Positions 34,101-54,800 of a stretch of DNA of 64,000 bases are shown in pieces. Origin of the DNA: a virus; IMG/VR virus record IMGVR_UViG_3300029812_000326, positions 1 through 64,000 of that record; one strand, written 5' to 3'. The position numbers were made by a program, and so were the translations under genes. Positions within the stretch are counted from its first letter, which is position 1. The number at the start of each line of letters is the position of its first letter. Under the pieces are notes generated by a model. The model searched no databases and was not told where the DNA came from. It saw only the letters and a program-made list of their open reading frames with translations.

Positions 34101-37100
34101 TTATGAAAAAATTCGCGATGAAACGCGCTTTGGCTATTCCTGCGGCCATTTATGGTTATCGTGCTATTGACACTTTTCTAACCGTAAATCCACTTTTAAA
34201 CCATACCATCTTTGATGACGGATTGACATCCGCTGGAGCCCAAATAATTGGAAAAGCAAATGTTGCTAGAGCTGAAGTATTTGATACATTGGGAATAACG
34301 GATAAAGCTCAATATTTAGAAGGACTCATGCCAGGATCTATGGAATCCCCCGCTGCAAAATTATTCAGAGCGGCCGCACTTCCGATTTTAGGAAGAAAAT
34401 TTGGTGGGGGACCAGGGCTTATGATTGGATTAGGAGCTTCAGCTGCAACAGGATTTGGTCTTCCTGATTTAACCAGATCTGCAGATGAACTTCGAGACGT
34501 TTATTCCGGAAGAAAGCTCGTACCTCATCGCAGCGGAAGATATTGGGAAACTTGTGTAACCCATTGCCCTATAATGACTTATAATGGAATAAAGTATCCT
34601 GAAGAAATAATTGTTGGAGATAAAATAAAAACATTTGATGGATCTGTTGGTAAAATATTGGCAAAATCCGAAAGAAAATTAATTCCTAATGAAACTGTTT
34701 ATAATATAAAAACCTCATTACCATTCAAAGTAGAACTAACTGGTAATCATGAATTATATATACTACGAAATGATGAATTGCGATGGATACCAACAGAAAA
34801 TATAATGACCACTGATTTATTGGCTATACCATTTCATAAACGGACTTATAAAAGGAAAAATTTATGGCTGCCAAACATATTAGATTGTTCCAAGATTTGG
34901 ACTGAGGGTGAAATATTATATCCAATGCAATTTAAATCTTGTTGGTCAAAGTCTACAAAAAATGGCATCCCCGCATCAATTCCTTTGACGAGAGAATTCG
35001 GGCGTTTAATAGGATATTATCTTGGTGATGGCAATGTTTTTAATAATGTTGGTAAAGCATATGGAATTGAATTTTGTTTTGATAAACACGAAATTTATTA
35101 TGCGGAAGATGTTCAAAATATAATTCATGAAATTTTTGGATTAAAATGTACAATTAGACGGAAAGGTTCTGGATATATAATTGTTCGCTGTTTGAATACA
35201 TTGGTTGGTCAACTATTCGAAACCATTTTTACGAGAAAAAAAATAGTTCCGGAATTTATTTATAATATATCAAATTCAGATTTTCATCGAGGCATTATTG
35301 AAGGACTATGGGAATCGGATGGGTCTGTTGATAAAACTGGAACTAATATTCAATTAAGTTTGGTAAATCCAAATATTATTTTATATGCATTTGAACAATT
35401 GTTGCGATTGGGCATAATTCCAACATTTCGAAAATCAGAAACAAACTATGAATCATTGAAAAAATTAAATCCAATTAAAAAGCAATATGGCGAAACATAT
35501 CATTTATATATTCCATCTAAATATAGAGTCAAGTTTTGGAAAAACATTCATATTAAAAAAGAAAAAAAGAGCCCAAAACCGAAACAATCTAAAATCAAAG
35601 ATACATGTTTAGTCGATGACAAATACTATTATATATCAATTTTAGATAAACAAACAATTCAATATGATGATTTGGTTTATGATTTTATGGTGGATCATAA
35701 TTTTAGTTATTGTGGTCCAACATGCACATATCATAATTCCAAATTGTCTTATTTTGGCGGAAGAATCAGATATTTTGAACCTAGTTGGTATACAAAAATT
35801 GTAAGTCAATATAAATATACGGACGCGGCATTGGGAACCAAGCTAGAATCATTATTATATACAGGCCCCTTAAGCGTATTAACAGATCCCTATCATTTCG
35901 AACGGGAGCATTTTTTCGATCGGCCTTATCCAACAACCGCTGGTCTTTTTTCAGATGTACCCGTAATTGGGTCAATCGCAGACATGACGATTGGAAGACT
36001 TTTAAAGCCTCAAGTTATGATGCATGAAGATGAATTAGAAGCAGCCCAAATGGGATTTGATGTAGAATCGAAAAATAGAATTTTACCCGGATACAATAAA
36101 AATACAATGCCACCTTTGCATGAAGCCCGACCTGGTTATTTTGCGCCAAGGCATACTATCCCATCAGTGAGCATGAAAGGAATGTTAGGAGATTCATTTT
36201 ATAGACTTACCGAAGCTGCTGGACTGCGAGGATTTATGACACAAGCGATATTGGGTCGAGAAGGGATCGGCCAATATGCCCCAGTGTATGATGATGCATC
36301 TGCAATTACTAGTTTCGGACATCAATTTTGGGACGCGGAAATAGGCGGTGGAATAATGTGTTTTGATGGGTCAACATTAATATCAACAACAAATGGATAT
36401 AAAAAAATATGTGATATCAAACCTGAAATGCAAATTGTCAATTTGTCAGGAATATATAAAATTAAAAACAAATTTAAAAGAATTCCAAATGATGATGATG
36501 AAATGTATGAAATATCTGTCAATTCACATCCTAATAAAATTAAAGTCACCGGAAATCATAAAGTACTGGCGCACAGAACCAAGTGCCATTGGAAATCGGA
36601 AAAATCGCATCGTCCAAATAATAATGGAATTTGTCCATATTGTAATAAAAAATTTGTCGAACATTTAAAAGAAATTAGAGTTTGTGATTTACGTCTTGGC
36701 GATTTTCTTATAACTCCGATCCCGATTGGACAAAATGAATACATTATTGATTTTGCAAAATATATGCCAATTTTCACAGATGATTTTGTTTATTCTCAAG
36801 GATCCAAAGAATTTTTTGAAATATATGAACGATTACAATTGGATGGTAATTTACAATATTCAGATTTTCATGATCAAAGATATTATGATGCGAAAAAATC
36901 TACTGGTAATCACAAAAAATGGATACGATATTTGCAATTAAATGAGGATTTATGTTATTTGATTGGATGGTGGATTGCAGAAGGCTGCATACAAAAGAGC
37001 ACTATGCACCTTATAATGCATAAAGATGAAATTGGTGTCGCCCATAAATTGGGTAATATCGCAAAACGATTACTTGGCATTGAAAATTACTATATTCGGT

Positions 37101-40100
37101 CTAATGGTGAAAATTGTATTAGTTTGTATTTTTCGCATCGGCCCTTTGTCAATTTTTTGAAAGCCGAATTTGGCTACGGATCACATAATAAATATATTTC
37201 GCATGACATTAAACAAATGAAAAATGAATATGTTTCCGCATTGTTGAAAGGACTCATGGAAGGAGATGGTTGGGAGAATGAATCCAAGGGTGGGTTTACA
37301 ACTGTTAGCCAACAGTTGTTATTGGATATGATAGAATTGTTTGCCAAATTGGGGAAATTGCCCCATGCATATAGTTATTATGAAATATCAAAAAATGGTG
37401 AGTATCCCCAGGGTGGAAAAAGGAAACCAACGTTGCGATATTATTTAAAATATAACAAAAATACACGTGGGCGATTCCATAATTTCATATTCAATAATAA
37501 ATTATATAAAAAAATTACAAAAATTGAACAAATTGATTGTCCACGGTTTTTGTATGATTTAGAAATTGAAGATGTTCATCAATATCAAGCAAATGGAATT
37601 ATTGCTCACAATAGTGAGGCTTGGAGAAGATTATATCCAAGAGAAAGATTTAAAAATTTGGTAAATCCAATCAGGAATTTGGCTCCAAATTGGTTGCCGG
37701 AAGAATTCAAAACTGGCGATCCATATTGTATTGGATTAGAATCATTGATTGATACAGAAAATGGATTGATAAAAGCAAAAGATGTTTCAGTAAATGATAG
37801 ATTAAAAACTCACGATGGTTCATATCGGCGAATCATGGCGGAAAAAATTAGAAATTTGAAACAAAATGAATTTGCATATGAATTCCGCATTACCGGATTG
37901 CCAGCAATTCCATCCACTATATTTTCTGAAGATCATCCCATTTTGGGATTAAAAAATTATGAAATTAAACAAATTCATAATAGGAAATATGGACAAAAAT
38001 ATTATCGCAAAATGCGTAATGCAAAATGTTACAATTTGAAAAAATTGCCGCATCCAAAATGGATTAAAACAAAAGATTTAAATCCAGGAGATTATGTTGC
38101 TTATCCGATTCCACAATATGAGGAAAAAAATATTATTATTGATATGGCAAAATATACTAAGTTCAAATACACTGATAGATGGATTTATCCAAAACATTGC
38201 CATCCGGAAATATATGAATATTTTTTATCCAATCCCTGCCCATATAATATTCAACAATTGGCTATAGAATTCAATGTTGAAGGAAGCACGTTGGATGCTA
38301 TTCGAGATCATATCAAAGCAAAACGCTACGCAATCCGGTATCCAAGATACATAGAATTTGATGAAGATTTAGCTGCACTTTGCGGATATTATGCTGCAGA
38401 AGGTTGGGCAGGAAACAATGGGGAAATTGGATTTGCGCTACATGTAAAAGAAAAATCTACAATTGTAAAATATTTGGATCATATTTTTAAAAAATTCATA
38501 AATCGAAGTGGAGAAATATATCAATATGAAAGAAATGGAAATGGAATTGACTATCGAATAGGTTCTGGTTATCTTGCTGATTTTTTGGGACAAATCGGGC
38601 ATGAAGCACATGAAAAGCATATTCCCAAAGAATTTTTTCATTTGCATAAATCATATTTAATTCCATTAATTAAAGCATATTTTGAGGGCGATGGTTGTTA
38701 TTTTTCAGATGGAAAACGCGCAAGATTTTCTGCAAAATCAGTTAGTTTACAATTATTATATGATATTAGAAATATATTATTATCCTGGGGCATAATAAGC
38801 AATATAAATTACGATCCTGGCGGCCGGACGTCAAAAATTGGAAATCAAATTATCCATGCTGGGATTTCATATAGTTTAAATATTAATTCAGAAAATGCAT
38901 TAAAATTGGCAAAATTGTTCCAAATTAAATTAAAATGCAATTCTAAAATGCTACATTCGTATTCATTCATCTACGATGGATATTTATGTATGCGCGTTAA
39001 TAATAAGCAAAAAGTTTCATGTGACCAAGTCATAGGATTTGAAATTGAAAACGATTCTTTTTGTGTATTAGGAATTGCAACTCATAATACTCACATCAAA
39101 GGGGGTTTGATTTTGCTTCCATCTCGCGCTCACGAAAAAATGTATCATGTGAAGCATAATTTTCCTATTGATTTAGAATATTTTGGATATGAACCCGGAG
39201 AGGCCGCAGGAAGACTATTGAAATTGATTAGACCGGAAAGAGAAGAAGAATATCATTATTCATTTATTAAAGAATTAATTCAAAAGCAATTATTGATGAA
39301 TAGGCAACTGCTATCCAAAGACGTGCCACTTTTTAATCCTTGGTCAAAGATTGAAGGGCATGTTGATGCTATTATTATGAATCAATCTGGAATTCCAGAA
39401 CTGATGCAAATAAAAGCAACTACTGCTGAAAAACTTGGATTCATGCAGCAGCCAAAACCGGCGCACGTATCTCAGCTCAATTTTGCTATGAGACAAATGA
39501 AGAAAAGATATGGACAAATACTTTATGTTGCGTCAGATAATCCAGAATTAAGTAAATCTTTTTATATAGAATATAATTCGGAACGATTTCGCAATGATAT
39601 GTCAAGAATAAATGAAGCTCGGGAATTGGCATCAGATATGTTACTCAAAGGCATTGGGCAAGTTGGAGAATCCTATTCCTATCCTGATAGATTACAAATT
39701 TTAGCCAATGTATCTCCGTGGGCTCCGGAATATAAAAAAGTTTTGAAGCAATGTAGATTGTTAAAAAGCCATGGATTACTGGATGAAGAAGATCAGGTTA
39801 AAGTAGACGAAGCCCGTAGGCAACATGATGCGATTATGAGGAAATTTGATTTTTATCCTCATCGATTTAGCCATGGTAAATGGCTTACTCCTGACCCAAC
39901 CTATAATTTGATGTCTCAGAATGAAAATATTAAAACTGCTGCAAAATATAATATTATTGAAAGATTAATGGGCGCAGCTTATGAACGATTATTGGAATTT
40001 GATATCCCGGTTGTCCATTCTAAATTGCTTCCATATTATACACCAGAACAAATGTACGAGAGACAAATTGGAGGCAGTTTCAGTGGGCAGTGGTCCAGAC

Positions 40101-41980
40101 CTATCCATGATTATATAAAACCCTGGTGGCATAGTTTTCTCTTATCAACGAATCCAGTTGCATCGGCGATTAAACTTGGATTTGCTGGTGGAGTATCTGC
40201 AGGCCCCCCCGGTGCCGCAGTTGGTTTGGGTGCGGGATTATTATATGGTGCTGGAAGAAGTGTCGCTGGTCCAGGAACTTGGGTTCCGAAAGAGGTCAGA
40301 AAAACCCGAGAAATCGATGAATATTTTGATGCTTTGGAATATATAAAAAATCGTCAATTATATGAACAAACCGGCGACCCGGAATATCTTAAGCGATCAA
40401 GAGAAACAATTTATGGTGTCACTCCTATGAGCACACCAGCCGAATTTTATAGATCGGTTCCGTATATGGAACGTCCATTTTTCTGGTCATTTGCTTCCAT
40501 ACAGGATAAAATTCAACAGGATAGAATTAAACAGCGGATTTCGCCAACCATGAGAAAACTTTTGGAGCACTATTGGTCTGGAGAGAAAAAATTTACTAAT
40601 CCAATGATAGAGGATTATAATCCAAATTTCCGAATGCCAGCGGAGGATTGGATGGGATGGAGAGAGGATATTCCATTGGAGGATATACAACTTAAAACTG
40701 TCAAAATGGAAGGGCTAGATTGTTTCATTCCTACGCAAAAATTATTGACACTAAATGGTCCAATCGAAATACAAAATGTTGAGATGGACACTGAATTAGT
40801 GAATGCCCAGGGAAAGTTGAAAACCCCAATCTGTATATTCAGAAAATTTTATAAAGGCGAAATGATTAAATTAGATTTTAAAGGAACGTATTTTGATTTA
40901 ACCGGAACAAAAACTCACGAATTGGAGATAGCCAAAAAATGCAGAAAATTTGTATTTAAAAAACAAAAACTTCAAGATGTGCGGAAATACAATAGATTAA
41001 AATTATATGGCTATAATTTCCCAGAAACATGCAAAAAATTCGATGATATTAAAATTTCGAAAGATTTAGGATTTATTCTTGGCTGGTTTTTGGCTGAAGG
41101 AAGTTATGTATATAATCCCCTAAATAAACAACCAAAAGGAATTGTATTTTCATTAAATATATTGGAAAATGATATTGCAAAAAAACTTCAAAGTAAAATT
41201 AATAAAATATTTGGTTGTAATGTTTCAATCCACGAACGAACATCTTCAACTTCTGGAAATCCATATTTGCAAGTTACATCATTTTCTGTCAAAATGGCGA
41301 GATTTATATATAAGTTAATCAATCCCAACGCAAAAACGAAATATCTACATCCAATTGTATTCAAATTTCCAATTCCGATTCTCGAGGAAATAATTCGTCA
41401 ATGGTTCAATGGTGATGGATGGAAAACAAACAAAGAGGTTTGTGTTTGTACCGCAAGCGAGAAATTGGCAATTCAGGGGTGGTATATAATGCGATCCTGT
41501 GGGATGGAAGCCGCGATACAAAAAGCAAAGCAATATGGATACAAACCAGGATTTAATTACAGAATCAGGATTGGTCGTAAAAAGGACAAGGAAATATTTT
41601 ATTCCAATTGGAAATATGTTCCATGGACCACATTGACGGTATCAAAAATATATCATGTTAATTATGAAGGCGATATTTATGATGTAGAAATGCCGAATAA
41701 TCATTATTATACAACAATTTGTGGAACTGTTCATAATTCCCATGATTTTGGATTGGGATGGAAACCTCAAGAATTAAGAATGCATAATTCTCCATATGCG
41801 GTCAAACCGATAGACATTTCCAGTCCTTCTGGAATATCCTATGGTCACGAAAATTTAGAATCGGCTGATGTAAAAAATTTTGTTCAAAACATTTTGCAAA
41901 GATATGGTATAACAAATACAAATGTAGCTGTTACAAAATCTCAGGGCAGTGGCGCGACCATATCATTAAATATTAATTAA
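31133..41980 (+). CDS. Giant virion protein in the tape-measure position; four inteins and a Cas4/RecB-like domain (2009 aa after predicted splicing)
   Basis: Follows tail chaperones; Gly-zipper hydrophobic segments; four C...HN intein blocks; EGHVD..QIK..SQLNF motif. Confidence 0.7.
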   Translation: MYSDHFYEQRENLDYRDRQLPNPLKTIGAGAFSLLAFIVIRGAALRGSSAASKSLARNLPRVLRSVAAPKTWIKSYKNLRAAAIRSSRAEAKQFGILSPKDIGIAATVKEVPLIQRARAKFTTIFAKQIEARRQYYYRDLGLREKELYAALKEGYHPRALDQRLKALKTFMKPDGAFSARFMAAAGKWGERYAKMIPGFYVADQALGLFEKERPEHPKPAWYNIPGHVAGMVRFGIGFAPIDLAFSGARHLFRYGRAVSARGAQLGVREFPHVREKFAKTVETLHIKGAQWHASISKHWAARRHGAWPSIQELKRSIKERKAPHSMDIVRLYSDIVKDAKIQRKPYFKMEQQLNQILGVLGMRKDPEMLREMSKDTEIKKAFHEVLGKFERRPKQTFIEYALKTPERPADWAPRRLSTTSYIKRYAKEAQWDPETTNNVLKLLGGKELYYGKNILRKGNFSMFNASFTAGKVIDVMGKWKLPFINWHPFERMMITGIPKIGIPSKGSAFRILDEKQSALMAEAAIDADLNITRSPQLKIGEYFMRIGDHVFRFSPEKLIKRISGHWKVGVDTITAGERRYFQGMVESQTDYEHTGWLGHLRQKFELGRSPHFIGRRLKEYIIQDFNPESPHVLMHEKGKFAGMLERLQGDKIFSPREQKEFINYSRAIGRHLYGSEQNALELFHNNQGLRGKVLDILGGADAKKAKKILNDVNIDKVIDDLSMFDYALPEIYSQRTVQEVRRALHDVQNLVGADREFLLRSRATVVGQASNLSVQDYLMGQYFKKTLENYSKVGKITEDMYDKIFKSIDDAIVSKSEKSKAKSLFASMKINRPMSEHLNVYSDQEVINSLDTVGHLKDIISPNENLLRDVFKLDYRSLRESAKINRFMRDTLIPLEIRGYMGPINEIWRIQGHGVPSAPKDLFGAAPGFGDMITSSFNKFFRISDSATQINYEPYITKQSMLLHRWAIRPFNMTLGWIGLDLQYRSNAEFMKKFAMKRALAIPAAIYGYRAIDTFLTVNPLLNHTIFDDGLTSAGAQIIGKANVARAEVFDTLGITDKAQYLEGLMPGSMESPAAKLFRAAALPILGRKFGGGPGLMIGLGASAATGFGLPDLTRSADELRDVYSGRKLVPHRSGRYWETCVTHCPIMTYNGIKYPEEIIVGDKIKTFDGSVGKILAKSERKLIPNETVYNIKTSLPFKVELTGNHELYILRNDELRWIPTENIMTTDLLAIPFHKRTYKRKNLWLPNILDCSKIWTEGEILYPMQFKSCWSKSTKNGIPASIPLTREFGRLIGYYLGDGNVFNNVGKAYGIEFCFDKHEIYYAEDVQNIIHEIFGLKCTIRRKGSGYIIVRCLNTLVGQLFETIFTRKKIVPEFIYNISNSDFHRGIIEGLWESDGSVDKTGTNIQLSLVNPNIILYAFEQLLRLGIIPTFRKSETNYESLKKLNPIKKQYGETYHLYIPSKYRVKFWKNIHIKKEKKSPKPKQSKIKDTCLVDDKYYYISILDKQTIQYDDLVYDFMVDHNFSYCGPTCTYHNSKLSYFGGRIRYFEPSWYTKIVSQYKYTDAALGTKLESLLYTGPLSVLTDPYHFEREHFFDRPYPTTAGLFSDVPVIGSIADMTIGRLLKPQVMMHEDELEAAQMGFDVESKNRILPGYNKNTMPPLHEARPGYFAPRHTIPSVSMKGMLGDSFYRLTEAAGLRGFMTQAILGREGIGQYAPVYDDASAITSFGHQFWDAEIGGGIMCFDGSTLISTTNGYKKICDIKPEMQIVNLSGIYKIKNKFKRIPNDDDEMYEISVNSHPNKIKVTGNHKVLAHRTKCHWKSEKSHRPNNNGICPYCNKKFVEHLKEIRVCDLRLGDFLITPIPIGQNEYIIDFAKYMPIFTDDFVYSQGSKEFFEIYERLQLDGNLQYSDFHDQRYYDAKKSTGNHKKWIRYLQLNEDLCYLIGWWIAEGCIQKSTMHLIMHKDEIGVAHKLGNIAKRLLGIENYYIRSNGENCISLYFSHRPFVNFLKAEFGYGSHNKYISHDIKQMKNEYVSALLKGLMEGDGWENESKGGFTTVSQQLLLDMIELFAKLGKLPHAYSYYEISKNGEYPQGGKRKPTLRYYLKYNKNTRGRFHNFIFNNKLYKKITKIEQIDCPRFLYDLEIEDVHQYQANGIIAHNSEAWRRLYPRERFKNLVNPIRNLAPNWLPEEFKTGDPYCIGLESLIDTENGLIKAKDVSVNDRLKTHDGSYRRIMAEKIRNLKQNEFAYEFRITGLPAIPSTIFSEDHPILGLKNYEIKQIHNRKYGQKYYRKMRNAKCYNLKKLPHPKWIKTKDLNPGDYVAYPIPQYEEKNIIIDMAKYTKFKYTDRWIYPKHCHPEIYEYFLSNPCPYNIQQLAIEFNVEGSTLDAIRDHIKAKRYAIRYPRYIEFDEDLAALCGYYAAEGWAGNNGEIGFALHVKEKSTIVKYLDHIFKKFINRSGEIYQYERNGNGIDYRIGSGYLADFLGQIGHEAHEKHIPKEFFHLHKSYLIPLIKAYFEGDGCYFSDGKRARFSAKSVSLQLLYDIRNILLSWGIISNINYDPGGRTSKIGNQIIHAGISYSLNINSENALKLAKLFQIKLKCNSKMLHSYSFIYDGYLCMRVNNKQKVSCDQVIGFEIENDSFCVLGIATHNTHIKGGLILLPSRAHEKMYHVKHNFPIDLEYFGYEPGEAAGRLLKLIRPEREEEYHYSFIKELIQKQLLMNRQLLSKDVPLFNPWSKIEGHVDAIIMNQSGIPELMQIKATTAEKLGFMQQPKPAHVSQLNFAMRQMKKRYGQILYVASDNPELSKSFYIEYNSERFRNDMSRINEARELASDMLLKGIGQVGESYSYPDRLQILANVSPWAPEYKKVLKQCRLLKSHGLLDEEDQVKVDEARRQHDAIMRKFDFYPHRFSHGKWLTPDPTYNLMSQNENIKTAAKYNIIERLMGAAYERLLEFDIPVVHSKLLPYYTPEQMYERQIGGSFSGQWSRPIHDYIKPWWHSFLLSTNPVASAIKLGFAGGVSAGPPGAAVGLGAGLLYGAGRSVAGPGTWVPKEVRKTREIDEYFDALEYIKNRQLYEQTGDPEYLKRSRETIYGVTPMSTPAEFYRSVPYMERPFFWSFASIQDKIQQDRIKQRISPTMRKLLEHYWSGEKKFTNPMIEDYNPNFRMPAEDWMGWREDIPLEDIQLKTVKMEGLDCFIPTQKLLTLNGPIEIQNVEMDTELVNAQGKLKTPICIFRKFYKGEMIKLDFKGTYFDLTGTKTHELEIAKKCRKFVFKKQKLQDVRKYNRLKLYGYNFPETCKKFDDIKISKDLGFILGWFLAEGSYVYNPLNKQPKGIVFSLNILENDIAKKLQSKINKIFGCNVSIHERTSSTSGNPYLQVTSFSVKMARFIYKLINPNAKTKYLHPIVFKFPIPILEEIIRQWFNGDGWKTNKEVCVCTASEKLAIQGWYIMRSCGMEAAIQKAKQYGYKPGFNYRIRIGRKKDKEIFYSNWKYVPWTTLTVSKIYHVNYEGDIYDVEMPNNHYYTTICGTVHNSHDFGLGWKPQELRMHNSPYAVKPIDISSPSGISYGHENLESADVKNFVQNILQRYGITNTNVAVTKSQGSGATISLNIN
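34553..35737 (+). mobile_element. Intein 1 with LAGLIDADG endonuclease (395 aa)
   Basis: WET|CVTH start, LTGNH block B, LIGYYLGDG and EGLWESDG, TYHN|S end. Confidence 0.88.
36359..37612 (+). mobile_element. Intein 2 with LAGLIDADG endonuclease (418 aa)
   Basis: GIM|CFDG start, VTGNH, LIGWWIAEG and KGLMEGDG, IAHN|S end. Confidence 0.9.
37727..39088 (+). mobile_element. Intein 3 with LAGLIDADG endonuclease (454 aa)
   Basis: DPY|CIGL start, SEDHP, LCGYYAAEG and KAYFEGDG, ATHN|T end. Confidence 0.88.
40721..41737 (+). mobile_element. Intein 4 with LAGLIDADG endonuclease (339 aa)
   Basis: GLD|CFIP start, TKTHE, LGWFLAEG and WFNGDG, TVHN|S end. Confidence 0.88.
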
Positions 41981-41982
41981 TC

Positions 41983-44900
41983 ATGCCAATTATTTACGAT
42001 CAGGAAGAGAATCAATTTCGCGATAGATTCGGATATTTATTTCCAACTGTTTTATTAGGTGGTGGGTTCATGGCCTGGAAAAAATATTATGGATCTCCAC
42101 AACTTGGAAGGAAATTTTCACCCCGCGCATTCATAGGGTTTGTCAAAGATCTAAGCTCCCAAGATTATTTAAGAAAATATCTTACAAGGCCGGATAAGCC
42201 AGAGCTTCCTCTTCAGCACAGACTAGTAGAAACTGCGGTAGAATATGAGAAAAGTAAATCGGTAATAGAATTTCTTACCGATGCTGATCTGAAAACTGTT
42301 CGTGAAATTGGTAAAGCCTTGCCAACTCCAATTAAAGTGGAAGAAATTGAATTTAAACGTCAGGTAATTAGACAATTCAATCCAGTAACCTATGATTTGG
42401 TAAGGAATAATTTAGAAAAGACACAAGAAGTATTTAATGAATTGCTCGAAAATGTTGAAGATTCTAAACATTTACAAAGTATTCTTAAACAACAACTTGA
42501 GCGATATAGATTTAGAAAATCCCATTTGCTTATATATTCGAAATTTTCAGAAATTATTAGTCCAGAAATGCTGAAAAGCGAAGCTGAGCAGACGGTTTTA
42601 ATGAGACAACTATGGGATACGCAAAAGAAACAAACTCAGGAAGCCAGAAGACTTGCACAAATACTTCAAAGAGAATCCCCGGAAACTATAGTAAATTTGA
42701 AAATTCCAAAAGTTTTAGAACGCGTTGATCCCGCCATTCTGATAGATGAAAGACGAGCGAGACTTCAGCCTGCTGGCAAAACAATCAATGATTCAGGTAT
42801 TAAATTGTCTTATACAGGTTATAAATCATTTCTTCAAACGCTCAGAAGAGCAAGAGTTGATTCCAAAGCTATTGCTGCAATTGAAACAATTGATCCAATA
42901 CTAAAGCAGCATTTAAATGAGCTTGCTCATACAAAAGCCCGAATTACATATGCATTACAAGATAATGCTTTTAATTTGCGAGCTGTAATCAAATTGTCTA
43001 TTCAAGTCAAAGAAGAAGGCAAAAGAGAAACCATTAACTTGAAGATCCCGCTCACTCGTGGTGGAAGATTAAGAGTCAATGGAACGCGTTGGATTCCTCA
43101 AAGATATAAAGGCATCAAACCACTCATTCCTGAAATAGAACGAATTGAATCTGATATTTATGAATCGATGATCCGTAATTTGAATAAAAGATTTAAGAAT
43201 GAAGTTTGGCATAGAATAATGGCTGGAGATGCCCGAGGTGGAGAACGAGCCATCAATACTTTAATTAAAGAGCCGATTGATGAAAGATTAATCATGGAGG
43301 TTGGATGTCCAGTACATGATTTCATTGAACAAAATGTAATTCAGGATGCTAAGCTTGGCTATTTATCTCCTACTCGCGGATTTAAAAATGAAGATGAAAG
43401 ACGTGCTGTGAGTGACCGATTTAAAAAAATGCAGAAACTTAAATTACTTCTGATGGAAGGCGATGGAAAATTAAAATTACCAAATAGGTATGCATTTATA
43501 GATTTTGAAACATTTGGAACAAAAACGAATTACCTGCCGCATCAGGTAACCATTGGAATAATTGAAAATGGCGCAGTTGTTGATTGGTATACAGGAAAAG
43601 TTGATCCTCGAAGTATTAATGCCAATTATGCTTTCCCGGAAATTGATTTGAAACTTTCATTCAAAGGAAAAACAAGAGAGCAGGTTATGAAAGAATTTGA
43701 TGAAATGGGGCAACCCATTAGTAAAATTCGAAAAGAGTTGGAGGATTTCCTGCGGAAAAATGCCAAAGGAGGAAAGCTTCCGGTTGCGGCTTGGAGTGCT
43801 AGTTTTGATGTGGATAGGGTAATGGGCCAGCAATTCTTAGGAGCCAAAGCCTATTTGGGAGAAACCTGGGATCCGATGGATCTCCAAAAAGCTATTGATC
43901 CAGATGTCCAAGCTTCAGTTTCTCTTAGATCTGTTGGACAATCGCGGAAAATTTTCATTCCGACATCTTCAAAGAAAGATTTGACTCTTAATAAGAAAGT
44001 TATTGAATCATTTAAAAAAGATCATAAACTAATGGCTATTTTGAAAGACAAAGATCCTGGATTTTATAGCAAATTGGCAAAAGCGATTTCTGAAAAACAA
44101 ATACGAAATCTAGTGATGCATGAAGCATCAATTGATGTACTTATGGCAAATAAAGTTTTTCAAGACATTGCGAAGGATATTAATTTACATTCTTCGGTAG
44201 TGATGCGCGATTTAAATGCAATGTTATTAGCATATCATCGCGCATTAACTCGCTCGATAAATCCAATAGACGTTAATCATTGGACTACCAGAGCATTGGG
44301 ACATAACTTCCCATCTCTTTCTCCTGCTCAGATTTTGCAAGGTAAATTTACGAACTTTGACATCAGAGATTTAGCTCCGCTTACGAATTTGGGCTTGGAT
44401 CCAACAAGACCATTTTATCAGCAATGGAACTCCGCGCGTCTGATTACCACCCATGTTCCTGACTTGGTCACGAAGACATATAAAAAGATCGCGAGTAGGC
44501 GCGGAGAAATTTTCAAATCGATGGATATATTAACAATTTTTAATCCATTAACTGCGGAAAATGCTGGCTTGATAGATTTTCAGGCCGCAGATGAAATGGC
44601 AATTAAAATGGTATCGAAATTGATTAGAATCCCTCACACTGGTAATTTGAAACTCATACCGGAACTCAAGGAGGCGTTTGAGCAGATAAAATCAGCAAAG
44701 ACTCCGAAAGATCGCGAAATTGTATTATCGAAATTGAGGCAGAAAATGGCGAAAGCCTATCAGAAGGGATCCCGGTTTAAAGAATGGCTGCCAGGATATA
44801 CTTTACTTGGAGAAGCGGAAGGATTTACATTTGATACTTCGACTCCATTAATGTCAGCGATTGAAAATATTGAATATAATAATGAAAATAGAGAAATAGC

Positions 44901-47900
44901 TATACGTCTTCAAACTGCCAGTTGTCCTGAAAAATATGGGCATCCAATGAAAATTTTTGCATATCCATATAAAGGAATGTTAACTCCAATAGAAGGATTA
45001 AGATCGATTACTTGGGTTGATGCCGTTCTTCGTAAAGATCTTGCAAAACGCGGCAGAATGTCAGTCATGTTAGGCCAAATTCAAAGATTGACTAGGAATT
45101 TCCAAACCATTCATTCGAAATTAACTCCATCCCAAACATTTCAATTTTTTGAAACAGTTAAAATTTTTGTGAATAAAATAAATTCAATGGGTGGTATTAA
45201 ATTAGATTGGCAAGTCAATAAAGGTAAACTTCAATTTATAGACGAAATAACGGGAAAAGAATGGCAAAAATTGGATCTCGGAAAAATTGAAAAAAATTGG
45301 TTACAATTTTCCGAAGGCGAATGGGTTAGATTTATGAAAGAATATTCCCAAAAAATCCGACATATGATGATTTCATTTGGGATTAAATATTCCAGACATG
45401 ATCCTCGCTTGCCTTATTGGACTCAAGGTCAACTTGAATCGATGCTATCAACTGAATGGGGTAGACGATATCCTAAAAAACTAGCATTTGCTGATTTGTC
45501 CCGAGCTGAACAAAATGTATTTCGGGAAAAAATAGAAGTAGAAATGCACGAACAATTATCAAAAAGTGAATTCTCCAAATTTTTTACAAAAGCAGAATTA
45601 GAACGTTGGAAATCCGGAACTTTAATGGAAGGCCATCTTTCTTTGATTCAACTATTCGGCGGTTCTTGGGGAATATTAGAAGTTACTCCGGCATCTAGAG
45701 CATATGAAGCCGGAGAATTATATGCTAAAGGTGCCGATATAAAAATCCCCAGCTTGGATGAATTAGTTGTGTCCGGACCAATAGCTCAAAGAATTGCTCG
45801 CACATTCACTGGCGAACAGCGCGATATGATGAATTATATGTCAAACATCCAGCCCCTTTTGAGATATGGAATCTTGCCTGAATCTCATTATCCAATTATA
45901 AAAGCCTCAGAAATAAATCTTGATCCTATGACAACTCATTTAGGATTTAAAGAGGAAATTGGAATCATAGAAGATAAATCTTTCAGAATTAAATGCGTTG
46001 AAACTGGGGAAATTTTTAATTCTTTGGAAGAAGTTCCAGACCGCTATTTGAAGCAATATACATTAAGACCCATGGGTATGAATGCATATATGCACCCAAA
46101 AACCTTGGAATCGATGTATGGACAACAACCAACTATAGTTGAATTCAATATAGGGAAAAAGAAGGTTTACCTTCCCAGACCGGCATTATCATTTATCAGA
46201 GGTGCGCCCGCCAGAGTCACGAAAAGCGGAGATCCTTATACCATCATTGGAAAAGAGATTCAAACATTTAAAAATCTATTGATTGCGGCATCAGATTACG
46301 AGAAAATTAAAGGGGACGAAGCAAAAGCCGCATTTGAAAGAAAGTTCTTTTCACGGGCTGAAGACTATAAAAATATGATATTAACGGATAAAAATGCATA
46401 TATAAAAATGACCAAACCAACGATTCCTGGAGTTCAAGGAAAGATTTCCATGGCATTTGCCCCCGGAATGGCTAAAGCGTTGGGATTGCCGCAAGATATG
46501 TTTAGCCATATAACTACAGGATTTGGGATACAGGGAGTATCTGTAAAGTCGATGGGCGAAGAATATTTTAATAAAGCCATGGATGTCCATCAAATAAAGG
46601 AAGGATCGAATGTTGGAAAATATAGAGGCGCCACAGGAATGGTTTATCCGAATAAAATGGCGTTTAGGGAAGCTCTTATTGAAGGTGAAGAATTACTTGC
46701 GGGAACTATTATCAGAACCCCCGCAGAAAACCGATTCGCATTTTTTGATACATTGATCACTGTTAAAAAAGATCAAGCAGCTGGAATGCGCCTCCAACTT
46801 AGAGAAGCATTAGCAACCCACTGTGATTATGATGGGGATATAGGGCGCCTAGTATTTGCCGAGTTTTCTCCCCAGGAGCAGGAGCAAGCTTTGAAAGATC
46901 TCATAAATAAGCAACACGTTGATAGAAAAGCACATGCAACATTAGCTGAAAGGATCAAAAAGCTTCAAGCAAATGTGCTTGAATATGAAACCGGCAAAGA
47001 CGTCGCAACCAAAAAACAGATTGTCAAGGAAATTGAACAAATTCAAGAACTTGAAAAAACAATGAACGTTAATGTCTATGGTCAAGGTATTTGGGTAAGG
47101 GAAGCTAAACCAAAAGCGATTCCAAAAGAAATTAAATTAGGAATTGGCGATGAAATGAGATTTCGAAAAATGAATTTGCATCAGTTTATGAAAGAATTGC
47201 CATCTATTGATCTTCCCGAAAGATTGATCAAATTACCGGGTGAAGAATTGGAACAACATCTTTCCAATATGCTTACGAAAACTGCTACAGCCTACTCGTA
47301 TAGAAAAGCAATGACCATGAGATCAGCAACTAAGCTATTTGGTGGAAAATTAACTGAACAATATTTGGACTTATATAATGAATTGGCCGGAAAAGTTACT
47401 GCATTCAAAAAAGTTCCATATGAAAAAGCTGAGCAAATAACTAGAGCTCTATTGGAACCAGAAGCTGCAGAATCGAAAAAAATTATGGGAGAAGTATTAA
47501 ATAGGGATGCGGAAGAACTTTGGCCACAATTTAAAGAATGGCATTCTGCACTAAATCGTGCCATGATGAGAAAGGAAGTTAATGAATTAATCAGTTCTGG
47601 AATGAAACGCGCCCCTATTACGGGTGGACAGTTGGCATTATGGGGTCCAAGTGCAGAAATCCCTGCTGCAGGAAAGACTCGCGCAATTTTAGACTTTTGG
47701 GGTAAAGAAAAGTTTCTTGATAGCTTTAAACGTCAAGGGAAAAAAGGCGGCATTGCAATTGCGTTGGCCGCGCTTGTCGCTCCGATTTTCCTGTCGCACG
47801 ATAATATATATGATAAAAAAGGATATCCAATAATTCCAACGAATTTCAACGTTGCTCAGCCAATATTCCCAGCCCCTATTCACATAATACCAAACGATCC

Positions 47901-48030
47901 ACCATCGCATCCTATAAGAACATTTAAACCTCAGATTATTGATCCTTTGCTTATTAATTTTGGTTCTGACAACAACTTAACAACAAGAAGGAATAGTGGC
48001 CAATATCCAAATGAATTGAGAAATTACTAG
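41983..48030 (+). CDS. Putative single-chain two-barrel RNA polymerase fused to a DEDDh exonuclease (candidate virion RNAP)
   Basis: IDFET (43501), SFD (43807), HEASID (44119-44136); ENAGLI and MKIFAYPYKG beta-like motifs; IRTP (46714) and HCDYDGD (46819-46839). Confidence 0.7.
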   Translation: MPIIYDQEENQFRDRFGYLFPTVLLGGGFMAWKKYYGSPQLGRKFSPRAFIGFVKDLSSQDYLRKYLTRPDKPELPLQHRLVETAVEYEKSKSVIEFLTDADLKTVREIGKALPTPIKVEEIEFKRQVIRQFNPVTYDLVRNNLEKTQEVFNELLENVEDSKHLQSILKQQLERYRFRKSHLLIYSKFSEIISPEMLKSEAEQTVLMRQLWDTQKKQTQEARRLAQILQRESPETIVNLKIPKVLERVDPAILIDERRARLQPAGKTINDSGIKLSYTGYKSFLQTLRRARVDSKAIAAIETIDPILKQHLNELAHTKARITYALQDNAFNLRAVIKLSIQVKEEGKRETINLKIPLTRGGRLRVNGTRWIPQRYKGIKPLIPEIERIESDIYESMIRNLNKRFKNEVWHRIMAGDARGGERAINTLIKEPIDERLIMEVGCPVHDFIEQNVIQDAKLGYLSPTRGFKNEDERRAVSDRFKKMQKLKLLLMEGDGKLKLPNRYAFIDFETFGTKTNYLPHQVTIGIIENGAVVDWYTGKVDPRSINANYAFPEIDLKLSFKGKTREQVMKEFDEMGQPISKIRKELEDFLRKNAKGGKLPVAAWSASFDVDRVMGQQFLGAKAYLGETWDPMDLQKAIDPDVQASVSLRSVGQSRKIFIPTSSKKDLTLNKKVIESFKKDHKLMAILKDKDPGFYSKLAKAISEKQIRNLVMHEASIDVLMANKVFQDIAKDINLHSSVVMRDLNAMLLAYHRALTRSINPIDVNHWTTRALGHNFPSLSPAQILQGKFTNFDIRDLAPLTNLGLDPTRPFYQQWNSARLITTHVPDLVTKTYKKIASRRGEIFKSMDILTIFNPLTAENAGLIDFQAADEMAIKMVSKLIRIPHTGNLKLIPELKEAFEQIKSAKTPKDREIVLSKLRQKMAKAYQKGSRFKEWLPGYTLLGEAEGFTFDTSTPLMSAIENIEYNNENREIAIRLQTASCPEKYGHPMKIFAYPYKGMLTPIEGLRSITWVDAVLRKDLAKRGRMSVMLGQIQRLTRNFQTIHSKLTPSQTFQFFETVKIFVNKINSMGGIKLDWQVNKGKLQFIDEITGKEWQKLDLGKIEKNWLQFSEGEWVRFMKEYSQKIRHMMISFGIKYSRHDPRLPYWTQGQLESMLSTEWGRRYPKKLAFADLSRAEQNVFREKIEVEMHEQLSKSEFSKFFTKAELERWKSGTLMEGHLSLIQLFGGSWGILEVTPASRAYEAGELYAKGADIKIPSLDELVVSGPIAQRIARTFTGEQRDMMNYMSNIQPLLRYGILPESHYPIIKASEINLDPMTTHLGFKEEIGIIEDKSFRIKCVETGEIFNSLEEVPDRYLKQYTLRPMGMNAYMHPKTLESMYGQQPTIVEFNIGKKKVYLPRPALSFIRGAPARVTKSGDPYTIIGKEIQTFKNLLIAASDYEKIKGDEAKAAFERKFFSRAEDYKNMILTDKNAYIKMTKPTIPGVQGKISMAFAPGMAKALGLPQDMFSHITTGFGIQGVSVKSMGEEYFNKAMDVHQIKEGSNVGKYRGATGMVYPNKMAFREALIEGEELLAGTIIRTPAENRFAFFDTLITVKKDQAAGMRLQLREALATHCDYDGDIGRLVFAEFSPQEQEQALKDLINKQHVDRKAHATLAERIKKLQANVLEYETGKDVATKKQIVKEIEQIQELEKTMNVNVYGQGIWVREAKPKAIPKEIKLGIGDEMRFRKMNLHQFMKELPSIDLPERLIKLPGEELEQHLSNMLTKTATAYSYRKAMTMRSATKLFGGKLTEQYLDLYNELAGKVTAFKKVPYEKAEQITRALLEPEAAESKKIMGEVLNRDAEELWPQFKEWHSALNRAMMRKEVNELISSGMKRAPITGGQLALWGPSAEIPAAGKTRAILDFWGKEKFLDSFKRQGKKGGIAIALAALVAPIFLSHDNIYDKKGYPIIPTNFNVAQPIFPAPIHIIPNDPPSHPIRTFKPQIIDPLLINFGSDNNLTTRRNSGQYPNELRNY

Positions 48031-48301: not shown

Positions 48302-48805
48302 ATGCCATATAAAGATCCAAAAAAACGAAAAGAATATCAGTAGGAATATTTACAAAAGAATAAAGAAAAATTAAAAATTCGCAGGCAGAAATATTATCAA
48401 GAAAATAAAGAAAAAATTAAAAAATATCTTCAAGAACATAAGGAAAGTGTTAAAAAACTTAAATTGAAATATATACGAAATCATCCGCATCGTGTTTGGG
48501 CAACGCATACCTTTAATGGTCATAAACACCGAAGATTTATAATTAATATTTCTATCGACGAACTTGAAGAAATTGCTAAAAATATAACTCATTGCCCTAT
48601 ATGTAATAGTGAATTCAAATGGAAACAAGAAAAACAATGTGATAATACACCATCTTTGGATCGGATTAATAATGGAAATAATATTGATAAAAATTCAGTT
48701 TGGATCATATGCAGTAAATGTAATCGAACAAAATCGAATAGGACTCTTAAAGAATTTATAAATTACTGTGAATTGGTTTCGAAAAAGGACTTTAATATCG
48801 AATAA
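48302..48805 (+). pseudogene. HNH endonuclease with in-frame TAG at codon 14
   Basis: MPYKDPKKRKEYQ*EYLQK.. in frame with the 48464 ORF; core paralogous to 4-531 (IDELE..HCP.C..PSLDRINN..C..CN..KSNRT..EF). Confidence 0.75.
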
Positions 48806-48807
48806 TT

Positions 48808-51800
48808 ATGAAAGTATATAATCCAATAGAGTGGAATATTGGTGTGCATGGTGGCTATGATAACCCCGATGATGCTAGAAATATAGTGCAGCCTCTTTTT
48901 GATTTATTGAATTATTTAAATCGATGGTGTCAAGACCAGGGAATGAATCATATTATTATTACTTCTGGAAGACGGGAGGCAAAGTATAATGCTAGCATTG
49001 GAGGAAGCCCAACAAGCTATCATTTGACTGGGCATGCGGCAGATATTGCCATAATCGGGCGCTATAATAGATGGGAACAAACTATGATTTACAATTGGTT
49101 GCACACTGTATTTGCTGATCAACTTGCTCAAGTTTTATATCATGGTACTGGAGGTAATTATCATTTACATATAGGAATTCGGAAAGGATCTGAAGGCATG
49201 GGGCCACTTTTGGAAACTGAAAGCAAAAGTGAAGGAATTATTGAAGAAAAAAAGCCCGGAACCAATTCTTGCAACATTATGAATGATAATATTATGGGAT
49301 ATAATGAAACAATTGCGACTCAGATACCGCTTGATATTTATAAAACGAGCTATGAATTACTTCAGGATGTTACTGAAGAAGAAAAAATTGATCCGTTGAT
49401 TGCATTAGCTCAAAAACCAGGATCATTTAAATTTGGCGCATGTTGGCTAACCGTGCCTCCAACATCAATTGCTTTTACAGAACAAAACAATATTGTTGGA
49501 ATTCCAACCCTTCGTACTAAAGGCAATGTATATTGGAGAACTGGCATCAATTCAATAAACATGGACCTTGAATTTTTGTTTCCAGGATTGATTCAAATTA
49601 ATGACGAATTGAGACATATAATTGCTCAAATTAAAAGATGCCCATTTTTACCTTTCGAAAATTATTATTTGCATTCATTGATATTTCCGGAATTAAAATC
49701 TGCTAAGCCTCAACCTGATATCCCATATGAATTTACCACGGAAGAAAAAACGCAACATGAAAAACAAACTGGCACTCAGGATAGACTTCAACAGCAGCAA
49801 TGGCGATTGAAAAACAAAAAGATTATGGATATAGTCAAATCCGGAGATGAAAAAAGCCTGAAAGAATTTATTGAAAAAGGTAAAAAATATGGATATTTTA
49901 TTCAAGACGCGGAATCTCAAGAAGATAGACGCGAAAGAACTGAACAGCTTGAAAAGCTTTATGAATGGATGGGAAAATATAGACATATTGATGTGGATGA
50001 TACTAGTGGATTAAGCTACCGAGATCAACAAATGGTAGCGGCAATACGATCAATATCGATTACATCTGTGCCCGGATTTCCCAAAACTCTTCAAATGAAT
50101 TGTTCCTGTGATATTTTTAATTATTTTCCTTATACTTCTGCGTTTAGTTTCATAGAAAATGAAACAAAAAACGAAGTTCCGGTTTTCAATATTTCCAAAA
50201 GTGCACTGTTTGGAAAATATTATAAAGGAATGCTCACTAGAAATAATGCCCAAGAATTTAAAGATGCATTTGAATCCACAACAAAATTGGAAGCCATTGG
50301 ATCTGATGAACGTATGGATTATTTGCATCTGAGATATATTTATTCTAAAGAATCGAAAAACCGAGCAATATTAGCTCAAAGAGCTATATTGGAATATATA
50401 CAAGCGATCAAAGATTTTGGAGAAAGCTATGAAGCAGCGCCAGCTGCAGAATTATATCAAAATCTTTTCATATTTCTTACGCATCCCAATTTTGGAGGTT
50501 GGCAAAATCTATTTGATGCGCCTGGAAACGTAATAGATGCCATAAAAGAATTGGGAAAAGATGCAGTAATCGCAGGAAAAAGTATTATTGCTGTGGTGAA
50601 ATTTTATCAAGATTCTTTTGGGGAATATTTACTTGGCATAAATGCAAATAATGAAATATATGTCATAGGTAATAGGAAAGGGCGGGAATATTTCCTTCCA
50701 CTTAAAGATGCAATTAAAAATCCGGAATATCGGACAAGATTATTATTTTATATTAAAGATTATTCAGTTAAAATCCGATCGTTACAATATAATCAGCGGG
50801 ATTTGAAACTTGGAGATCAGAATTCTCAAATAGTTGGAATTTCAGCATCAATGGAAACAAAACTTGTGCCAATGAATATATTAGCATTTACGAAACCAAC
50901 TTTCCAACATCTTGGAAATTCAGAATGGGTTGTTACATTAACGGTTGAAACATCAGATCCAAATTTAATAAGAGATTTTCGCATGATGACTGAACGGCTC
51001 AATCAAACCGCCTTATCACAAATTGCAGTGTTACCGGAAATTCGGGATTATGCGGATCTTTCTGCGCAAATTGTTGAAGGACCATTTTTTAAACTTTTAG
51101 GAATAGAAAATATAATTCCTGGTAATTTCAGATATTCTACCGTGGAAGGAAAACCCGGCATATTCCATATTCAAATCGATTTTGTACAATCCGATTTAGA
51201 ATTGAAAACATATGAAGCACTTCAAGCTCCTGCATATTTTCCGTCTGATTTTATCAAATCATTCATTAAATTAATCCCAGTGTTATTGCTTGAAAATATT
51301 TCTTCTAAACTTGAAGCTGATTGGAATAATTATCACATTATTCATAAATATAAAATTGGAATGCAGCTTTTGCATCAAACATTAGAAAATTATCCGAAAT
51401 GGTCAAAATTTCTATTTTATTTATGTAAACCAATTCCAAAATCTTTATGTTCAGAATCAATTCCAGTCTATAAATTTATTCTTAATGACATAAGTTCCGA
51501 ATTAATTGCAAAAAAGCAACAAAAAGATTTATTTAAATGGGATTGGAAAGATATCCTTATGTACGCCGGTGCATATTTTACTGCAAGATTGGGGGCGGGA
51601 CCGGGTCCAGTTGGTGATGTAAGAGCCCATTCAGGTGCGATGGCAGCAAAATTTACATTTACGAATTTACTTAACACTACAATATTTGCGGCATATAAAG
51701 GTGCCGTTGGACGACAATTGAAAGCAACGTTGAATGAAGCCATAAATAGGGAAAATGTTCCGTCCGAATTAAAGATTGATTCAACAGAAAATGGACGGAA

Positions 51801-54800
51801 ACTTCTTGAACTTATAAGAGAAAATCAAAAATATCTCCATATCAGAAATTCGACGTATCCTGATTTGGAACTTCCAATTATCGCAGATTCTCCTGATTTT
51901 TGGTTTTTCCGAGAACCATTATATAATGATAACATTCGAGAATTTGCCGATGTAATAGTCAGTGGGCATGAAGATATAGTTCTTAAATTGGCGAAACTTA
52001 ATTCTATGAATAAACAAGGAAAAGCAACTACCCAATTGGCTAAATTAGATCAAATTGCTAAAGAAGCCAAAATTAAAGAAGTTTTGGTTTCAGAAGAACT
52101 CAATAAAAATTTATTGAGCTATTTAAGAGATGCAAATGAAGATTTACAATTCAATATAGAAAGATCTAAAGATCTTAAAGAAAATGCACATCTTATGATG
52201 GAAACAAAGCGAAATAAATCTCAAGAATATTCGGGGCGCGCAGATGAATCGACATTAAGAAGCAGATTATCAAGGATTAAACATGATATGGAATATTATA
52301 ACGATTCGTTGAAAATTATAAATTTAATAGAATTAAAAAACATGGATTTCCAAACTACGGGCGATCTGTTGGATATTGCATTAGTTTTAGCAAAAAATTG
52401 GGGAATTTGTACTCCGAGGGATGCGCAACTTGAAAAACAAATGCTTCAAGATGCTATGAATCTTGATGAAAATAAAACTTTAAGATTGGGTCGGGCATTT
52501 CCAACTTTTAAATTATATTTTATAGAAAAAGATAAAGAAGAATGGTTATTGTTTGATGATTTTTATGGATATGGCGCAGTAAAAGAAATTCAAATAAGGA
52601 AAATTAGAAAATCTCCGATTCATACTGCGGTAGTTACATTATCAAATATCACTAATGTACTTCAGGATATTCATGCTCCAAAGAATGAAAATATTTCTAA
52701 ATCAGAAACGGCAGAAGAGCAACCAAATATTGACACTATGCTTCTTCAAGAAGGTTGTGAAATAATGATTAAGATGGGCTATGAAAATGATTCCAATAAA
52801 TTGAAAGTTGTATTTCAAGGATCGATTGTAAGTATACAGCCCGGACCAGAATTGCAATTTATTGCACAAGGGTGGGGAGCAGAGCTTGGCCAGCCAATTC
52901 AAGATTTTAGTGTTGGAAAATGGAGCACAATTCGGGATTTCGGAGATATAGCGACCGCAATTTTAAATAAAGTTTCTGGATTGAGGCATTTTGGAACAAC
53001 ATATAATTTAGCAGAAATGTTTGATGATCTACCAAATATTCAATACAGATCTGATCGTCGAGAAACATATGTTGGTAGATTGAAAAATTGGTCGCTTCAA
53101 GGATTGGGGCTAAATCCACTGCTTGATCATAGAGACGACAACGTTTGGTTGCCATATCATAGTCCTCCCAGCATTTGGTCGCTAGCCCATATTATAGAAG
53201 GAAAAGGATTTGCATTTGATTGGAGAGTATATAATAAAACCGCGTGGGATGCACTTGATGAGGTATTGAAATATATGCCGGGATATATTATGAAGATTTT
53301 GCCTTATAATGAAGATAATTTGCAGTCTGCTAGATGCACATTATATATAGGCCCAAGGGATGGATATTATATGGCTACGGATGATTCAGAAGTTGTCAAC
53401 AGGACATCGGAACATGATAAATATCAAGAAAGAAGAAATAGATGGTACATGCGCGTTAAAGGCATAAAAGCACCAACGAAACAAGAATTGATAATTAAAC
53501 TTAGAAATTTTAACATAGATTATGATAGCAATACAAGTATAATTTATAAAGAATTTATAAATCAAAACATTATTTGTCAAAATGATGAATGCAGCTTAAT
53601 GAAAGCAAGTCCATTTAATCCAACAGTAGTTCAATGGAGTGGACAATTATATACCATGGAAATTCTATTTGGAGGAAACGAAATATGTCATAAAATTAAT
53701 AAAGAACATTGGAAAAGACAATATTTTAATGTTTTAAATGGTTCAGGTATGACACGGGCCATCATGATATATGATGTTTATGACAAACTTCATTTCAAAG
53801 ATTTTGAAAGAGTCTACGGTAAAGCTAGCCTCTTTGAACGAGCAACTGAAGGAGTAGAAAGATTTACTTATGGGAAAGACGATAATCCTAAAAGGCTGGC
53901 CGGAAAACGAGGATGGAAACGAGCATGTAAAACTCATTTTATTGATAGTTATCATCACATAATTGAAAATAATATGAAAGCTTCGCGCGAAAATATGTAT
54001 AATAAGGTTCACTTAATCTATCCAAAAGGCGAACCTCAAATGGCTGCAAATGAAACGCAACTTAAAACTGGAGATTTATCTGAATTTGAAATGCTTGCAG
54101 ATGACAATATAAAACCTGATATGATAAGAACGCATAAATTATTTTTTACCAATATTGACGTTGATCGAACAAGAAATTTTATAGATTCAATTGGAAATGT
54201 TCTTAAAGGTCTTGGGCAAACGATTGGACTTAATGATCGTGGGAATTTTCCCGATATTCCACCATACGCAATAGTAGCGAATACGATACTCGCTGAAGAT
54301 TTGAAAGATATGTATGATGGAGAAATTATTATTTTGCTCGATCCAAATATTGATATTCATGATGTAGTCTATATATACGATGATGTAAATGAAATTTATG
54401 GGCCAGTTGGAGTAAAAGAAATTTATCATTATTTCTCTATGGCACATGGAGCTTATACAGTAATTGTGCCCGATCTTATGTCATATCCCAGTAATCTAGA
54501 ACAAACTGTTGAATTGGGTTATGCTTCAGCATTATATGCAGCATTAATTAAAATAGTCCTTGGTGGCATTTTAATTGGTGGAGGCGGCGCGCTTTTGGCT
54601 GGGAATTTGCTTGGACCATGGACTGGAGTAGGAGTCGCGGGATTTAGTTTGGCATTTACGTATAAACTTGCTTCTTCTATAGGTTCTGGTGGAATAAATA
54701 AACTCATGGGAAGAGAGGGTTCTGAATTCGTGCCCATATGGAGAAAGGGTGCCCCATTTCTTGCTGGAATGGATGGATATAGAAAAGATGATCTTATAGT

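Follow-up and report, generated by a model that had tools for sequence, protein, structure and literature searches.

A giant tail-module protein of a myovirus-like phage is a candidate exonuclease-fused, single-chain two-barrel RNA polymerase

P0001 is a 228-kDa protein encoded in the tail module of the virus record IMGVR_UViG_3300029812_000326 (IMG/VR), of which we analysed the first 64 kb (64,000 nucleotides, hereafter the window; the whole record is 108,870 bp long, with a CheckV completeness of 53%). Here we propose, with a probability of about 0.55, that P0001 is a divergent, exonuclease-fused, single-chain two-barrel polymerase, most likely a DNA-dependent RNA polymerase, which would be injected into the host as an early transcriptase. 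Injected RNA polymerases enable a phage programme to start without the host enzyme, and unusual, compact transcription machines are found among them. The proposal starts from a catalytic-type motif, its invariance and its spacing, an exonuclease domain and a conserved gene order, all of which were observed. A fold, a second barrel, an activity, packaging in the virion and a time of action are proposed from these. The coordinates of all features are collected in Table 1.

The central evidence is a putative Mg-binding Asp triad, HCDYDGD, the first Asp of which is D1615 (nucleotide 46825). The preliminary description of this stretch had listed the open reading frame (ORF) and its motifs, and on re-reading the sequence all of them were found at their positions. 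It had also drawn attention to R-T-P located 37 amino acids (aa) before HCDYDGD, and R1578, P1580, D1615, D1617, G1618 and D1619 proved invariant in an alignment of six full-length family members (alignment A2; lowest identity 27-30%), as did H1613, E1582, K990 and K997. The spacing from R-x-P to the first Asp was 37 in all the family members. Invariant columns make up 14% of this alignment, and 15 of the 93 Asp residues (16%) are invariant, three of these 15 lying within the D.DGD motif. Since the triad site is invariant against so few invariant columns and Asp residues, it appears to be under strong selection and to be no chance string. It is therefore very improbable that the motif arose by coincidence in a structural protein without enzyme function. 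Short motifs do recur across the very many proteins scanned, and the AlphaFold confidence (predicted local distance difference test, pLDDT) at the site is below 50, but all five motif residues together with the R and the P are retained, and the composition of P0001 itself gives an expectation of 0.012 per protein for D.DGD and of 1.8e-4 per protein for D.DGD with R.P at -35 to -39, before conservation is counted. Shuffled profiles, described below, also argue against chance. An EF-hand-like DxDxDG calcium loop was set aside for the triad because the third Asp is not followed by Gly.

The P0001 family is tiny and has hardly any neighbours by sequence. An exhaustive HMMER search with aa 800-1900 against 1.84 billion representatives found six proteins, namely one close relative, two full-length proteins of 2000 and 2055 aa (29-33% identity) and three fragments, and scans of contig collections added a further close relative and a more distant full-length member (2015 aa). 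Word-index protein searches with P0001 returned two close relatives only. Among cultured phages and plasmids, tblastn with the whole protein, the exonuclease part or the catalytic part gave no relevant match, no homologue was found in a genome-contig scan, and the ESM Atlas gave no usable match. Among the sequencing runs listed, no RNA run carried the sequence and a single DNA run did so, with a small share of the words; no habitat is read from this.

We compared the family with 37 reference sequences, comprising bacterial beta', nine divergent phage beta'-like proteins, seven virion RNA polymerases (vRNAPs) of crAss-like phages including phi14:2, four non-virion RNA polymerases (nvRNAPs) of Thermus phages, and gp96 of Thermus phage P23-45. 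R-x-P precedes the first Asp by 35-39 residues in 37 of the 37. The residues that follow the triad in P0001 (DYDGDIG, I-G-x and a hydrophobic run) are nearly identical to those of P23-45 gp64. When aa 1500-1660 of the family were aligned by hhalign with a diverse beta' profile (19 rows, Neff 4.1), a score of 25.1 (P 0.0027, 120 columns) was obtained, with R-x-P placed on R-x-P and triad on triad. With the full 2015-column query, the best place was again the same region (1460-1641; score 26.5, P 0.027), the runner-up scoring 17.5. In 200 column shuffles (mean 12.6, sd 2.5), the score against the beta' profile never rose to the observed value. The beta' family was the only reference family to give a weak profile signal to P0001. 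The stretch GLPQDMF (aa 1500-1506, window 46480-46500) resembles the beta' motif GLPKKMA, and hhalign aligned the two; this likeness was set aside as probably due to chance because it is not kept in distant family members. A core hidden Markov model (HMM) was also built from all the reference families, and leave-one-family-out tests and shuffles that kept the anchors (R, P and the triad) were carried out. True families left out of the model scored 6.9-33 bits, with the divergent jumbo-phage beta' sequences at 6.9-8.9 bits, and their scores were reached mostly by 0-2 of 300 anchors-kept shuffles (5/300 and 14/300 for the weakest jumbo-phage beta'). The P0001 family scored 7.7 (the window sequence), 7.7, 3.9, 4.0 and 1.3 bits, all five above the shuffle mean, and the window sequence is thus within the range of the most divergent true jumbo-phage beta' sequences.

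Several results weigh against a polymerase. The distant family members reached 1.3-4.0 bits only, below the most divergent true members, and anchors-kept shuffles attained the family scores in 11-109 of 300 cases (19/300 for the window sequence, 109/300 for the relative P0005). Similarly, the beta' score was reached in 9 of 150 cases (mean 21.6) when all columns but those of HxDxDGD were shuffled. Beyond the anchor residues the polymerase signal is thus marginal, and no member is significant alone. Searches of Pfam, PHROGs and the PDB by phmmer and hmmsearch, with the sequence as well as the family profile, gave no polymerase match for P0001, and PF00623 and PF05183 had no match anywhere in the genome. 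The hhalign comparisons with the single phi14:2 vRNAP, gp96 and gp64 sequences and with small alignments of crAss vRNAPs and Thermus nvRNAPs returned nothing, and a profile built from the C-terminal half of the beta barrel matched no part of P0001. No sequence method is significant on its own. The AlphaFold models were of low confidence (pLDDT 34 for aa 800-1800 as a single sequence; 44.9 overall for aa 1180-1880 with an eight-row alignment, and <50 at aa 1570-1628); because pLDDT was <50 at the triad site in both, a double-psi barrel could not be read from either, and Foldseek with the low-confidence model gave no meaningful match. Lastly, the genome encodes a sigma-70-family protein of 341 aa (region 2, E 5e-11; G000 101627-102652, minus strand; locus L015:3627-4652), which implies that at some stage the phage relies on the host's RNA polymerase core. 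The preliminary description had spoken of host-independent early transcription, a claim that this protein weakens; at most, the earliest genes could be transcribed host-independently. The blank searches against polymerase families are to be expected and do not weigh heavily, since beyond the small DxDxD region the known families are without significant mutual similarity (Chaban et al. 2024, PMC10770324).

The same marginal flanks, and the want of any significant polymerase profile, are also compatible with a different metal site. P0001 could be an ejection or inner-tail protein of the virion, channel-forming or similar to a tape measure, with a nuclease module, in which the acidic cluster serves as another type of metal site (Toprim-like, phosphoesterase or nuclease). 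Its place in the tail module, its conserved C-terminal hydrophobic helix and its long helical stretches fit such a protein, as does the presence of a nuclease-like domain in a neighbouring giant protein, and the spacing of about 45 residues from a Glu to the DxD (E1570 to D1615) would suit a Toprim-type site. However, the Pfam Toprim models readily find the phage's own primase and find nothing in P0001. The residues before the triad are amphipathic and do not form a hydrophobic strand, and neither the invariant R-x-P at polymerase spacing nor the strand-like residues after the triad are Toprim features. We regard this alternative as possible though doubtful. In the polymerase that we favour, D1615, D1617 and D1619 would hold the catalytic Mg, on the loop that joins the final helix to the final strand of a beta'-type barrel, and the strand ending in R1578-x-P1580 would be the first half of that barrel. 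The conserved TK[TS]A and G-x-VT-x-x-KK motifs (aa 1765-1810), assigned by eye, are possible counterparts of the bridge helix and trigger loop.

A beta-type barrel would be expected upstream in the same chain. The preliminary description had placed it by E859 of ENAGLI, taken as the beta-side ED motif, and by K990 and K997, taken as the beta-side K..KG. The first assignment is not supported, as E859 varies within the family. The two lysines are indeed invariant, but they lie 625 aa before the Asp triad and lack a match to the beta profile; the corresponding distance is 178 aa in gp64, 231 in gp96, 264 in QDE-1 and 334 in phi14:2 gp66 (PMC10770324). The beta4 strand of the second barrel follows the pattern K-G-x-h-h-h-x-P in gp96 and gp64, according to a structure-based alignment (Suppl. 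Fig. 8, PMC10770324). A site resembling this pattern is present around K1249, 366 aa before D1615, where R1239, E1242, E1245, K1249, G1250, I1255, P1256, L1258, L1261, V1262 and G1265 are all invariant. We infer that K1249-G, rather than K990, is the better beta4 candidate and that the beta-type barrel may lie around it. The earlier proposal of a single-chain two-barrel RNA polymerase therefore stands at the level of motifs (invariance, spacing and a beta' profile in register), and is not supported for E859 or, by the beta profile, for K990 and K997.

P0001 also carries a DEDDh 3'-5' exonuclease-like domain, which is real as judged from motifs and profiles. Exo I is IDFE (D507, E509), Exo II is SFD (D610) and Exo III is H713-x4-D718; D507, E509, H713 and D718 are invariant, and the Exo II Asp is replaced by Glu in distant members. 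Pfam PF16473 (Rv2179c-like 3'-5' exoribonuclease) matches with 26.3 bits (cut-off 27; E 7e-6), and phrog_192, which holds exonuclease subunits of DNA polymerases, with E 7.7e-6. As the same chain carries this domain, P0001 acts on nucleic acids, and a second nucleic-acid enzyme is more plausible in it than in a purely structural protein. No characterised RNA polymerase is known to have an attached exonuclease, and fusion to an exonuclease of the DnaQ/RNase-T type is typical of replicative enzymes. Hence the barrels could serve another role, as in a primase or a DNA polymerase-like enzyme (cf. PolD) or in an RNA-dependent enzyme or one making small RNAs (cf. QDE-1), with the exonuclease proofreading or processing in the cell; PolD and QDE-1 have the same barrels, and the phage sigma factor could cover transcription. 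Against this, a family-B DNA polymerase, split by an intein bearing a LAGLIDADG endonuclease, and a Toprim-DnaB primase-helicase are encoded by the phage itself (G000 102819-106016 and 94569-97097, both on the minus strand), the P0001 gene lies inside the tail operon among co-conserved giant neighbours of virion type, and DYDGD with Gly at the fourth position is the RNA polymerase form, the PolD motif being different. Such a role is unlikely.

The record appears, from its gene content, to be that of a contractile-tailed, myovirus-like phage. The preliminary description had located the P0001 gene between the gene at the tape-measure position and the baseplate, and the order found was sheath, two paralogues, 3615-aa ORF, P0001, 2044-aa ORF and baseplate wedge. 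In the distant relative L005 this block of three giant genes is kept (30-47% identity), with a homologue of the 3615-aa protein upstream (47%) and one of the 2044-aa protein downstream (34%); in L006 the giant frames are in the same order. Several hydrophobic stretches rich in Gly occur in the 3615-aa protein, and a cell-wall peptidase in the 2044-aa protein, features that would be expected of proteins which leave the virion and cross the envelope. In P0001, too, a hydrophobic helix is found near the C-terminus, and one ends all three distant family members near residue 1920-1980. The position in the tail operon, the synteny and this helix lead us to infer that P0001 is packaged in the virion and injected. 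If so, the RNA polymerase proposed here would be built into the virion, exit with the DNA and transcribe the first phage genes, and the phage sigma factor would later redirect the host polymerase. A fuller version, in which P0001 represents a sequence-isolated lineage of two-barrel RNA polymerases with a built-in DnaQ-type exonuclease, delivered through a contractile tail as the central one in a conserved trio of giant ejected proteins, is offered tentatively.

Giant virion proteins that hide such polymerases are known, and these precedents support the proposal. In P23-45, gp96 is a virion RNA polymerase fused to the tape measure and gp64 is its non-virion paralogue (Chaban et al. 2024, PMC10770324). 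On present comparisons gp96 is the closest analogue of P0001 in logic. It is a giant tail-module protein recognised only by a conserved DxDGD (DFDGD), with R-x-P 38 aa upstream (37 in P0001) and a membrane segment in the same chain; the beta-type barrel precedes the beta'-type barrel in gp96 and gp64, as we propose for P0001, and the host polymerase serves part of the programme. On the other hand, P23-45 is a siphovirus and gp96 is the tape measure itself (5002 aa), with an N-terminal polymerase and no exonuclease, whereas P0001 belongs to a phage with a contractile tail, is encoded by a separate gene after the one at the tape-measure position, has its motif near the C-terminus and is fused to an exonuclease. 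Sequence similarity of P0001 to gp96 or gp64 was not detectable by hhalign. The vRNAP gp66 of phi14:2 (PDB 6VR4; bioRxiv 10.1101/2020.03.07.982082) is likewise about 2000-2200 aa long with a catalytic site far from the N-terminus, has about 1600 residues without recognisable homologues and R-x-P 39 aa before the triad, and its gene is flanked by two other genes for giant virion proteins. It differs in coming from a podovirus, in its motif (DFDID, without Gly), in having no exonuclease domain and in remaining blank in hhalign; the giant proteins flanking P0001 showed no homology by BLASTP to phi14:2 gp078. Cellular beta' and the beta'-like proteins of jumbo phages (phiKZ/AR9-type) share the core pattern strand-R-x-P...helix-DxDGD-strand, but these are parts of multisubunit enzymes, and P0001 has no PF00623 match and no beta-side signature. 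In coliphage N4, a giant polymerase is ejected with two other ejection proteins and starts early transcription. N4 is a podovirus that keeps this virion RNA polymerase in its capsid, and the polymerase has a T7-like right-hand fold and not a two-barrel one. In the literature searched, crAss-like podoviruses and one group of Thermus siphoviruses are the only phages for which a single-chain two-barrel enzyme has been demonstrated in virions, and phiKZ-type jumbo phages package a multisubunit two-barrel RNA polymerase; we found neither a two-barrel polymerase in the tail module of a myovirus nor an exonuclease-fused form described there.

Table 1. Features of P0001 and of the surrounding window (positions in the window; residues are those of P0001 unless another ORF is named)
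Feature	Position	Strand	Remarks
P0001, candidate exonuclease-fused two-barrel polymerase	41983..48030	+	Open ORF, 2015 aa
DEDDh 3'-5' exonuclease-like domain, aa 474-720	43402..44142	+	PF16473 and phrog_192
TAENAGLI, 'ED-like' motif, aa 857-864	44551..44574	+	Present; T857, L863 and I864 invariant, E859 not
K-x6-KG motif (MKIFAYPYKG), K990 to G998	44950..44976	+	K990 and K997 invariant
Alternative beta4 candidate, R1239...A-K1249-G-[AT]-x-[IV]-x-I-P1256...G1265	45697..45777	+	Resembles K-G-x-h-h-h-x-P
Candidate catalytic double-psi beta-barrel (DPBB-A) region, aa 1500-1645	46480..46917	+	hhalign with beta' profile
R1578-T-P1580, closing a hydrophobic strand-like stretch	46714..46722	+	R and P invariant; 37 residues before D1615
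Putative Mg-binding Asp triad, H1613-C-D-Y-D-G-D1619	46819..46839	+	H, D, D, G and D invariant in 6 members
Long helical hairpin 3' of triad, aa 1640-1709	46900..47109	+	Best-predicted AlphaFold stretch, pLDDT ~70-86
Conserved T1765-K-[TS]-A and G1803-x-V-T-x-x-K-K motifs	47275..47412	+	Invariant also in fragments P0007 and P0008
C-terminal hydrophobic helix, aa 1922-1942, then Pro-rich tail	47746..47808	+	Kyte-Doolittle peak at least 1.6; same place in P0004 and P0005
Large terminase	9106-10974		
Portal	13170-14594		
Major head protein	17542-18915		
Tail sheath	23754-26471		
Two tube-like paralogues downstream of sheath	26493-27152 and 27229-28116		Both match phrog_9206
Upstream giant ORF, 3615 aa, tape-measure position	31133..41980	+	Four inteins, PD-(D/E)XK-like domain
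HNH/endonuclease VII-type homing endonuclease between giant genes	48464..48805	+	phrog_1035, E 6e-11
Downstream giant ORF, 2044 aa, N-terminal peptidase M15	48808..54942	+	Syntenic partner
Baseplate wedge gene	56136-57380		

Some other features of the genome were observed. The phrog_9206 label of the two paralogues, 'major head protein', looks wrong for both, and tail-tube proteins are more likely because of their position after the sheath. Four Cys...His-Asn inteins, which have LAGLIDADG domains and of which the first begins at C1141, lie in the 3615-aa ORF together with a PD-(D/E)XK/Cas4-like stretch (phrog_1706). The homologue of this ORF in L005 has no intein at the GDPY|T junction, so that intein content varies within that family. 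A second HNH/endonuclease VII-type homing endonuclease gene lies at window 59623-60369, between structural genes; together, the homing endonuclease genes and the inteins indicate heavy colonisation by selfish elements. The record is labelled a provirus and reads like a large phage of lytic type. A motif of 14-16 nt, TTTGAACTATAACA(TA), is repeated in intergenic gaps and is oriented with the downstream genes, with copies at window 12960, 28200, 48032 and 62720 and at G000 98992 (plus strand) and 98949 (minus strand); one copy directly follows the stop codon of P0001. The motif resembles a middle or late promoter specific to the phage, and may be one that its sigma factor uses.

Pfam, PHROGs, sequence searches of the PDB and AlphaFold are all blind to the P0001 family, and its function is therefore indicated only by a seven-residue site and one anchor pair; the case illustrates the limits of present tools. 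If the proposal is true, the known range of virion two-barrel polymerases would be widened to contractile-tailed phages, with an exonuclease of proofreading type fused to the enzyme. It would raise the mechanical question of how a 228-kDa enzyme passes through, or rides in, a contractile tail. Large myoviruses would then have a widespread but undescribed route for starting infection, by a transcriptase with its own attached proofreading or RNA-trimming nuclease.

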